In this document: positions 20,637-64,000 of the stretch, one piece after another | Numbering within the stretch: the stretch's first letter is position 1 | How the letters are laid out: every line of letters starts with the position of its first letter | NCBI RefSeq assembly: GCF_004010195.1 | Contig: NC_057753.1 | Location: 13,133,446 to 13,197,445, forward strand | Direction of reading: 5' to 3' | Origin: Chiloscyllium plagiosum | Taxonomy: Eukaryota | Length of the DNA: 64,000 bases | Notes under the pieces: generated by a model | Seen by the model: only the letters and a program-made list of their open reading frames with translations | Told to the model about the DNA's origin: nothing | The model's database searches: none | Position numbers and translations under genes: made by a program

Positions 20637-21140
20637 ATGTCGCTTCATATTGCTTACTCATTCCTAATTGTAGCATTTCTCGTAAGTGGTAAGTTGCTGA
20701 TGTGTAAAAGGTATACAATATGGGATCAGCAGTCTTCCCTTTAGCTATGTTTCACAGTATTACAATATGTGCCCTTAATTTGGGAATGGTTGTTGTAATC
20801 GTCTGTTAACTTCATTTCTTTCTAAATTTCTGTAGGTGTTAATTGTGCAGATGATGTCTCAGAGAAGCCAGTTACTGTAGCACAGATTTAAGGAGATTCA
20901 GTGACTATTCATTTCAGCTATTCAACCACACTTCGTTTATATTCCTTACAATTGTACCGCCAAGATCCGGGTGCACCTCCAACGTTCTTGATCTACATCC
21001 CTGCAAAAGGAAAGGTCGTCAGAGCAAAAGATGTTGGCGCTCGATTTTCTACATTCCTGGACACTTCGAACATGGAGGGGAATTTCACCACCCGTAGGCT
21101 CCAGCTGTCTGACAGCACGGAGTATTACTGTGCGCTGAGA
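20637..21140 (+). pseudogene. TCR V pseudogene of the Cys23/Trp41-less family (exon1 20637-20688, exon2 20836-21140)
   Basis: Leader MSLHIAYSFLIVAFLVS; single in-frame TAA at 20889-20891 where the paralogue has GAA; ends YYCALR plus CACAGTG; RSS spacer carries a 14-nt deletion. Confidence 0.88.
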
Positions 21141-21167
21141 CACAGTGACTGGAAGTAGATAAACACT
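21141..21167 (+). other. RSS with shortened spacer (heptamer + 11 nt + ATAAACACT)
   Basis: Compared with 63463-63501, AGGGAGTCTCGTAC is missing. Confidence 0.7.
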
Positions 21168-62826: not shown

Positions 62827-62834
62827 TGACGTCT
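62827..62834. promoter_or_regulatory. CRE-like element upstream of the 62957 V gene
   Basis: TGACGTCT about 130 bp before the ATG; the pseudogene paralogue has TGACATGG at about 20507. Confidence 0.4.
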
Positions 62835-62956
62835 TCCCAATTTTCATTTGAAACCGGTCAGCTTCAGTTTCTTCTATTCAAACCCACAATTGACTCTGAG
62901 CTGATACCATTCATTTATAGCTCGCTCTGTTTAAACCCTCTAACTTCTCTTTAAGC

Positions 62957-63462
62957 ATGTCTCTTCATATTACTTACTTATTCGTAACCGTAACAGTTCT
63001 CTTAAGTGGTAAGTTGCTGAGTTTTAAAACGTACGCAATATGGGATCAGCAATCTCCCCTTCAGCTGTTTTTCACTGTATTATGATACATGTCTTTAATT
63101 TGAAAATAGTTATGATAATCGTCCATTAAATTCATTTTTTTCTAAATTTCAGTCGGCGTTAATTGTGCAGACCATGTCTCACAGAAGCCGGTTACAATAG
63201 CGCAGATTGAAGGAGATTCGGTGACTATTCATTTCAGCTATTCAACCACTGCTGATTCATATTCCTTACAATTGTACCGCCAAGATCCGGGTACACCTCC
63301 GACATTCTTGATCTACATCCCTAAATACGGAAATGTCTTCAAAGCAAAAGACGTTGGCGATCGATTTTCTGCATCTCTGAACACTTCCAGTACGGAGGGG
63401 AATTTTACCATCAGCAGACTTCAGCTGTCTGACAGCGCGATGTATTACTGTGCGCTGAGAGA
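62957..63462 (+). CDS. TRAV: TCR alpha/delta-type V segment with open spliced ORF but non-canonical Ig core (exon1 62957-63008, exon2 63153-63462)
   Basis: MSLHITYLFVTVTVLLS-VGVNCADHVSQKPVTIAQIEGDSVTIHFSYSTTADSYSLQLYRQDPG...LQLSDSAMYYCALR; Cys23 is Phe (TTC 63233) and Trp41 is Leu (TTG 63272); no stops. Confidence 0.82.
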
Positions 63463-63501
63463 CACAGTGACTGGAAGTAGAGGGAGTCTCGTACATAAAC
63501 A
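63463..63501 (+). other. 23-bp-spacer RSS
   Basis: CACAGTG 63463-63469; 23 nt; ACATAAACA 63493-63501. Confidence 0.9.
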
Positions 63502-64000
63502 CCGCCCCAATGTAACAAAGTGCAAAGTGTGAATGGTATAGTTGGGGGGACAGTCGGAAATAACACTTACTTCCCCAATTTATACAAGAATTCACTGAAT
63601 TCAAATGAACCAAAGCAATTAATAAGGCGACAGCATTGGGGCAGGTGTGTTGTCCTCAGATGATATCGAATACATTTTGAATAAAATGCAAATATGTGAT
63701 TAGCGAATCTATCCCATTCTGAAAATTAAATTCATTGTAATCGAATGACTGTCAAAAATATTCCAACCGGTAAAGAAGGTGTATAGAACAGAACATGAGG
63801 CAAAAGCTACTAAATTGTGTGGATGCGGAGGAAAATGAAAACTGTACCTACAGTCTTATGTGGAATATCTAGATTTGCAAGAGAATTTTTATTAATCTCA
63901 AAGGTATATTTTCAATTCCGCTTTTGTCCACGGGCTGGTTTCTGATCATCCAAGGTACATTTTGGGAAATTGGAGCTCAATATTCCTGTGAAGCAGATTA

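Follow-up and report, generated by a model that had tools for sequence, protein, structure and literature searches.

The analysed window, a 64,000-base stretch of Chiloscyllium plagiosum contig NC_057753.1, contains two related T-cell receptor (TCR) V genes, an intact one at 63 kb and a pseudogene at 20 kb. Both feature Phe in place of the first conserved Cys (IMGT position 23) and Leu in place of the conserved Trp (IMGT position 41), as the earlier note on this DNA had stated. The Cys23-Cys104 disulfide and Trp41 are found in nearly all antibody and TCR V domains. The features of the two genes are as follows, numbered within the window.

20637..21167, + strand, pseudogene paralogue with Phe23/Leu41; TAA at 20889-20891 and 14-base deletion in the recombination signal
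62827..62834, + strand, CRE-like promoter site; 7/8 bases of the palindrome
62957..63008, + strand, leader exon of the intact V gene; 52 bases, ATG at 62957, found in spliced contigs of runs X1, X2 and X3
63009..63152, + strand, leader intron; GT..AG, 144 bases, donor at 63009
63153..63462, + strand, V exon; frame open up to the heptamer, Pfam V-set
63233..63235, + strand, Phe codon at IMGT 23 (first Cys position), placed by column alignment to canonical V exons
63272..63274, + strand, Leu codon at IMGT 41 (conserved Trp position), placed by column alignment to canonical V exons
63401..63409, + strand, Asn-Phe-Thr N-glycosylation sequon containing the Phe at IMGT 89 (usually Leu)
63449..63451, + strand, Cys104 codon, kept
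63463..63501, + strand, recombination signal (RSS); consensus heptamer at 63463, 23-base spacer, nonamer with 2 mismatches

The 63 kb gene is organised as a complete TCR alpha/delta V segment, i.e., with a leader exon, an intron in phase 1, as is the case in such segments, a V exon and an RSS with a 23-base spacer. All the elements previously attributed to it (leader, open frame, consensus heptamer, spacer and CRE-like site) were located. Either the full CRE palindrome TGACGTCA or the one-off version of the 63 kb gene, TGACGTCT, is present in 5 of the 12 family loci inspected, the full form being found at a similar place in 4 loci other than the 63 kb gene. The acceptor AG (63150-63155 region) is positioned 3 bases upstream relative to the paralogues, which adds one in-frame codon; the same shifted acceptor is present in an orthologue from another species and is used in transcript-type contigs. 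A Cys codon at the end of the leader (63164-63166) is invariant in the 12 aligned family rows and is missing from the canonical families of the same locus; the residue is probably removed together with the signal peptide.

IMGT region boundaries were assigned by us. The columns of positions 23 and 41 align without gaps to Cys and Trp, respectively, in all 13 canonical V exons of the locus used as reference, which rules out misalignment of the key columns as the cause of Phe23 and Leu41.

The earlier note had described the family represented by the two copies as looking maintained. This holds for the 63 kb gene but not for the 20 kb copy, and the two-copy comparison had thus rested on a pseudogene. 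The TAA of the 20 kb copy is an in-frame stop in FR1, the 14-base deletion removes 12 bases of the spacer and the first part of the nonamer (as judged by eye), and the CRE-like site is missing, in both its full and its one-off form. Neither the stop nor the deletion is mentioned in the earlier note. The V exons of the two copies show 45 differences in 306 bases, and flanks and intron are 76-80% identical. The DNA around both key sites is indeed the same in the two copies (identity is complete over 63221-63249 and 63259-63292), and the CDR differences were confirmed (6/21 bases in CDR1 and 5/18 in CDR2). The 20 kb copy has decayed as genes commonly do under birth-and-death evolution. Interpretation as a duplicated pseudogene fits this copy only, the 63 kb gene being intact.

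A DNA search of the C. plagiosum genome yielded 29 matches, 27 of which lie on the contig of the window, at 12.3-14.5 Mb. One was a duplicate match and one a canonical V gene; four further loci were retrieved by protein search, for a total of 31 family loci, counts that are lower bounds. The V exon is open in 11 loci and broken in 20. The family is large and expanded, and the 63 kb gene is one of its intact members. Leader, GT-AG intron and RSS were intact in 8 of the 11 open loci according to our scan. Three related open genes (L008, L009 and L010) have GC-AG leader introns with otherwise consensus sites, and carry heptamer and nonamer matches.

Leu41, Phe89, Cys104 and an N-F-T/S sequon are each conserved in 11/11 open exons, and Phe23 is found in 10, the exception being L007, which has Cys23. 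In terms of the residues by which IMGT classifies a V gene as functional, all 11 open exons encode a hydrophobic residue at position 89 and Cys104, 10 have Phe for Cys23 and all have Leu for Trp41. In a tree of 22 family and 19 canonical rows, from which 9 short or fragmentary family loci were left out, the family forms one clade with 100/100 support. The loss had been suggested to predate the duplication of the 20 and 63 kb copies; it is in fact far older, the family forming a single clade and the loss being present in Chiloscyllium punctatum and nurse shark as well. Among the nearest relatives outside the family is a canonical alphaV4-like family of the same locus (L030-L041, L045), which can be aligned to it without gaps, shows a similar selection pattern and is 37-45% identical to it. 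Unlike the shark family, alphaV4-like genes feature Cys23 and Trp41 in 13/13 exons, and have Leu89 with no sequon there.

Pairwise dN/dS values (Nei-Gojobori, with codon bootstrap ranges) were calculated for the 11 open family exons and for 13 canonical exons of the same locus. In the family, dN/dS was 0.28 (0.19-0.40) in the frameworks, with 0.11 in FR2, and 0.60 (0.37-1.02) in CDR1+2; in the canonical control, the corresponding framework and CDR1+2 values were 0.36 (0.26-0.48) and 0.77. Pairs are not independent and exons were picked for being open, biases that the control shares. Leu41 is encoded by TTG, CTG and CTA within the family. The family frameworks are under purifying selection. The idea that the loss was tolerated by selection, for which a comparison of frameworks and CDRs had been proposed, is supported by a framework ratio that is not neutral.

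Four sequencing runs (X1, X2, X3 and X9) were compared with positions 62850-63650. X3 bears the best-matching species label, taken as that of the window, and X1 and X2 that of another species. For X1-X3, an RNA source is guessed at or left unrecorded, and the contigs that show splicing are not those that show rearrangement; their splice joints suggest that they are likely transcripts. In all three, contigs cover leader and V exon of the window and nothing past the heptamer, and a short unspliced piece is found in X3 only. The 144-base GT..AG intron is skipped at the shifted acceptor in an X3 contig, and X1 and X2 contigs carry the same extra codon there. One X1 contig is identical to the window at 242 of 248 bases over 63215-63462, and none of the 6 differences falls in codons 23, 41, 89 or 104. 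The same contig continues in frame into a J ending in LKLIFG (translated by eye), which matches, with one mismatch, a genomic segment flanked by a 12-spacer signal and a donor.

This segment belongs to a group of 118 J-like motifs, all on the + strand of the family's own contig (G000:C44:14.56-14.70 Mb; L051-L064), 2 of which map near 14.56 Mb and 116 densely at 14.59-14.70 Mb. The locus thus features both a large J cluster and in-frame J joining, the joint being that of a related species' contig. The X3 contig ends 5 bases before the RSS, and no V-J joint of the exact 63 kb gene was seen under its own species label. No matching reads were obtained from X9 (single-cell RNA, about 2 in 100 reads examined), a sample too thin to serve as a test. 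An alpha constant exon was not located, and a nurse shark constant-alpha primer had no match. Most of the open genes of the family are on the minus strand, and their joining to J would involve inversion.

The family very probably corresponds to nurse shark TCR alphaV10 (TRA V10), a match based on motifs and a hand count. Both families share the motifs LQLYRQ, TFLIYIP and EGNFTI, lack Cys23 and Trp41 and carry the same sequon (PMC5931798). Among 247 proteins, the diagnostic motifs were found only in the query and in two C. punctatum proteins, which have Phe23 with either Leu or Val41. By hand count, alphaV10.1 and L011 are identical at 61 of 95 residues (~64%); identity spans 60-78% within the family and 37-45% with other families. 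In the nurse shark paper, alphaV families are delimited at 70% nucleotide and 75% amino-acid identity (PMC5931798).

TRA V10 accounts for 45 of 539 nurse shark clones, a share that is not a usage frequency, since clones were partly amplified with a family primer (Ott 2018, PMC5931798). The clones, primed from constant alpha, derive from thymus and spiral valve and are rearranged to J and constant alpha; they comprise 26 unique CDR3-J protein sequences, and two V10 groups belong to a hypermutation set stated to be in frame (PMC5931798). In the supplement, all 43 alphaV10.1 rows have Ile-Ser-Tyr where the first Cys would be, with Leu41 and no Cys codon (by eye and text search), two alphaV10.2 rows have Phe23/Phe41 (by eye), and the N-F-T sequon is present in 45/45 rows (PMC5931798). 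alphaV10.1 therefore differs from the C. plagiosum family in having Tyr23 instead of Phe23. By codon count, the supplementary alignment shifts alphaV10 by one codon at the first-Cys column, which may have hidden the substitution.

The family is present in three named or coded shark lineages. Two checks proposed in the earlier note have turned out in its favour, at least in the material available to us: probable elasmobranch counterparts without the two residues exist, in C. punctatum (with Leu or Val41) and in nurse shark, and in-frame rearranged forms are provided by the X1 joint from a related species and by the alphaV10 clones (PMC5931798).

The same note had left undecided whether the family had been described. 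Its sequences have been, under the name alphaV10, but a remark on the missing residues was not found: in the main text as accessible, "tryptophan" and "disulfide" do not occur, "cysteine" occurs twice, both times in relation to primers, and no passage deals with missing residues (PMC5931798). The double loss thus apparently went unremarked in published sequences; we put at roughly one in three the chance that a remark exists in further shark TCR papers, in supplements or in the figures of Ott 2018. How many germline copies exist, how they are selected and that one member bears Cys23 are findings of the present analysis, not described in that paper as accessible (PMC5931798).

The family is real and maintained, and very likely functional. 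Its genes could alternatively be transcribed and rearranged without producing a working receptor, cells being rescued by further alpha rearrangement or by the other allele, and the copies being passengers. Such a scenario would agree with the 20 broken loci among 31, with IMGT rules, which would class genes lacking Cys23/Trp41 as ORF rather than functional (PMC8559430), and with the fact that the case for receptor function comes from genes and contigs and not from protein. However, framework dN/dS does not exceed that of the canonical control, Leu41 is kept via three different codons, the family persists in the three shark lineages, and the nurse shark clones are in frame and clonally repeated (PMC5931798). 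We regard passenger status as very improbable.

Our main interpretation, to which we assign a probability of about 0.8, is that the 63 kb gene is an alphaV10-like TCR alpha V gene that rearranges to J and likely folds and works via a disulfide-free hydrophobic core. A V domain devoid of Cys23 and Trp41 would still fold as a V sandwich, in which Phe or Tyr23, Leu41, Phe89 and a buried free Cys104 would pack in place of the Cys-Cys-Trp pin. The Leu89-to-Phe exchange may fill the room left by Trp41, and the conserved sequon beside Phe89, together with pairing with the beta chain, would probably add stability. A compensating role of Phe89 is only suggested: the residue is family-wide, while Leu89 holds in 143/143 canonical domains with the column filled (4/147 are gapped). 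Some light chains of solved structure combine Phe89 with Trp41. At least 10 of the 11 open exons retain Tyr42, Gln44 and Tyr103, which are interface residues.

Structure predictions obtained using AlphaFold had a pLDDT of 49.5 with 12 family rows. With 53 rows, 41 of which were relatives from outside the family, they revealed a V-type sandwich with a pLDDT of 92, which matches V domains with a TM of about 0.8-0.9. The J-encoded G strand is absent from both models. The result is indicative of compatibility with the V fold, not of stability. The repacked core and the free Cys104 are predictions, and folding and function of the protein are considered likely from models and genes.

The conservation of Cys104 in every open exon, and that of the leader-end Cys in a family whose canonical neighbours lack it, would also be expected if the domain were not disulfide-free. 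Cys104 might pair with another Cys, e.g., the invariant one before the predicted mature N-terminus, or one in the partner chain. The leader-end Cys, however, is located at the expected signal peptidase cut, by our reading of the small-residue rule, and Cys104 lies mid strand F in the AlphaFold model, a residue that faces the core in V domains. Pairing of this kind seems very improbable to us. A functional domain with non-standard V geometry, i.e., a looser or partly open core whose folding depends wholly on the beta chain, would accord with the loss of both disulfide and Trp and with the low confidence of the family-only model. Low confidence is nevertheless expected with a 12-row alignment, and strand pattern, lengths and interface residues match those of canonical V exons without gaps; we give this geometry hardly any credit compared with a standard sandwich built around a repacked core.

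Precedents for V domains lacking one of the two residues are known. The VH of antibody ABPC48 is reportedly of somatic origin and carries a Tyr substitution. It is a natural example of a V domain able to work with one conserved cysteine missing, but is a single antibody and not a germline family, and no Trp41 loss is stated in the accessible part of the source (PMC5734687). Closer is salmonid TRAV1, a germline subgroup of TCR alpha V genes in which Cys23 is consistently replaced by Tyr and which is expressed in productive joints (PMC8559430). As in the shark family, the first Cys is replaced by an aromatic residue; unlike it, TRAV1 and related teleost V genes keep Trp41 and Leu or Met89. The shark family and the teleost Tyr23 genes are not joined in the best tree, although the AU test did not reject a common origin (p 0.28).

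Profile searches identified Tyr23 with Trp41 in 15 of 206 domains. Double loss was found among these domains in two C. punctatum proteins only, the query being the third, and among 354 domains of a further search in one, which is probably broken and also lacks Cys104; protein annotation of V genes is poor, and the range of the family is therefore not bounded by profile searches. A single-protein search gave 1 match, with none among longer proteins, and a search of the ESM Atlas returned generic TCR V clusters only. In four teleost TCR-like V domains (P0008, P0027, P0062 and P0148), Leu appears to occupy the first-Cys column of our profile alignment, perhaps because of an alignment register error. 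Our literature search, which covered the shark TCR literature in part, yielded no report of a TCR V family without both residues, and the accessible portions of PMC10322711, PMC12227049 and PMC9614664 contain nothing on double loss. Loss of Cys23 alone has a teleost precedent, and none was found, within the literature covered, for the double loss. Families without Cys23 and Trp41 are likely under-annotated, because annotation rules downgrade such genes.

The Cys23-bearing member, L007 (G000:C44:12767955-12768296), features TGT where other family members have TTC, together with Leu41. The broken L019 and L020, which lie off the main contig (on C90161 and C45), also combine Cys23 with Leu41. L007 is nested inside the family in the best tree, although the AU test did not reject a basal place (p 0.09). 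In nurse shark alphaV10.2, CDR1 is longer by one codon, as in L007, and position 23 is encoded by TTT, one base from TGT, as read by eye (PMC5931798). It is plausible from these sequences that the Cys23 of L007 was regained rather than retained, in which case the immunoglobulin disulfide would have been naturally lost and naturally rebuilt within one locus.

A broader scenario, which we consider speculative and unlikely, is that carpet sharks possess dedicated T cells relying on a second V architecture (Phe/Tyr23-Leu41-Phe89, a conserved glycan and free Cys104), which through its changed geometry or flexibility would serve a distinct class of ligands, L007 having regained Cys23 by a single-base change. 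The family raises a testable question on shark T-cell subsets. The natural series of Phe23, Tyr23 and Cys23, all without Trp41, could serve to test what an immunoglobulin core needs, and the family is a candidate blueprint for disulfide-independent V domains.

Other V sequences are present in the window. Canonical V exons with Cys23, Trp41 and RSSs map at ~10.2-10.6 kb (+), 22.2-22.5 kb (-) and 43.6-44.0 kb (-), and broken V remnants with frameshifts and stops at ~26.9-27.2 kb and 61.9-62.2 kb (+).
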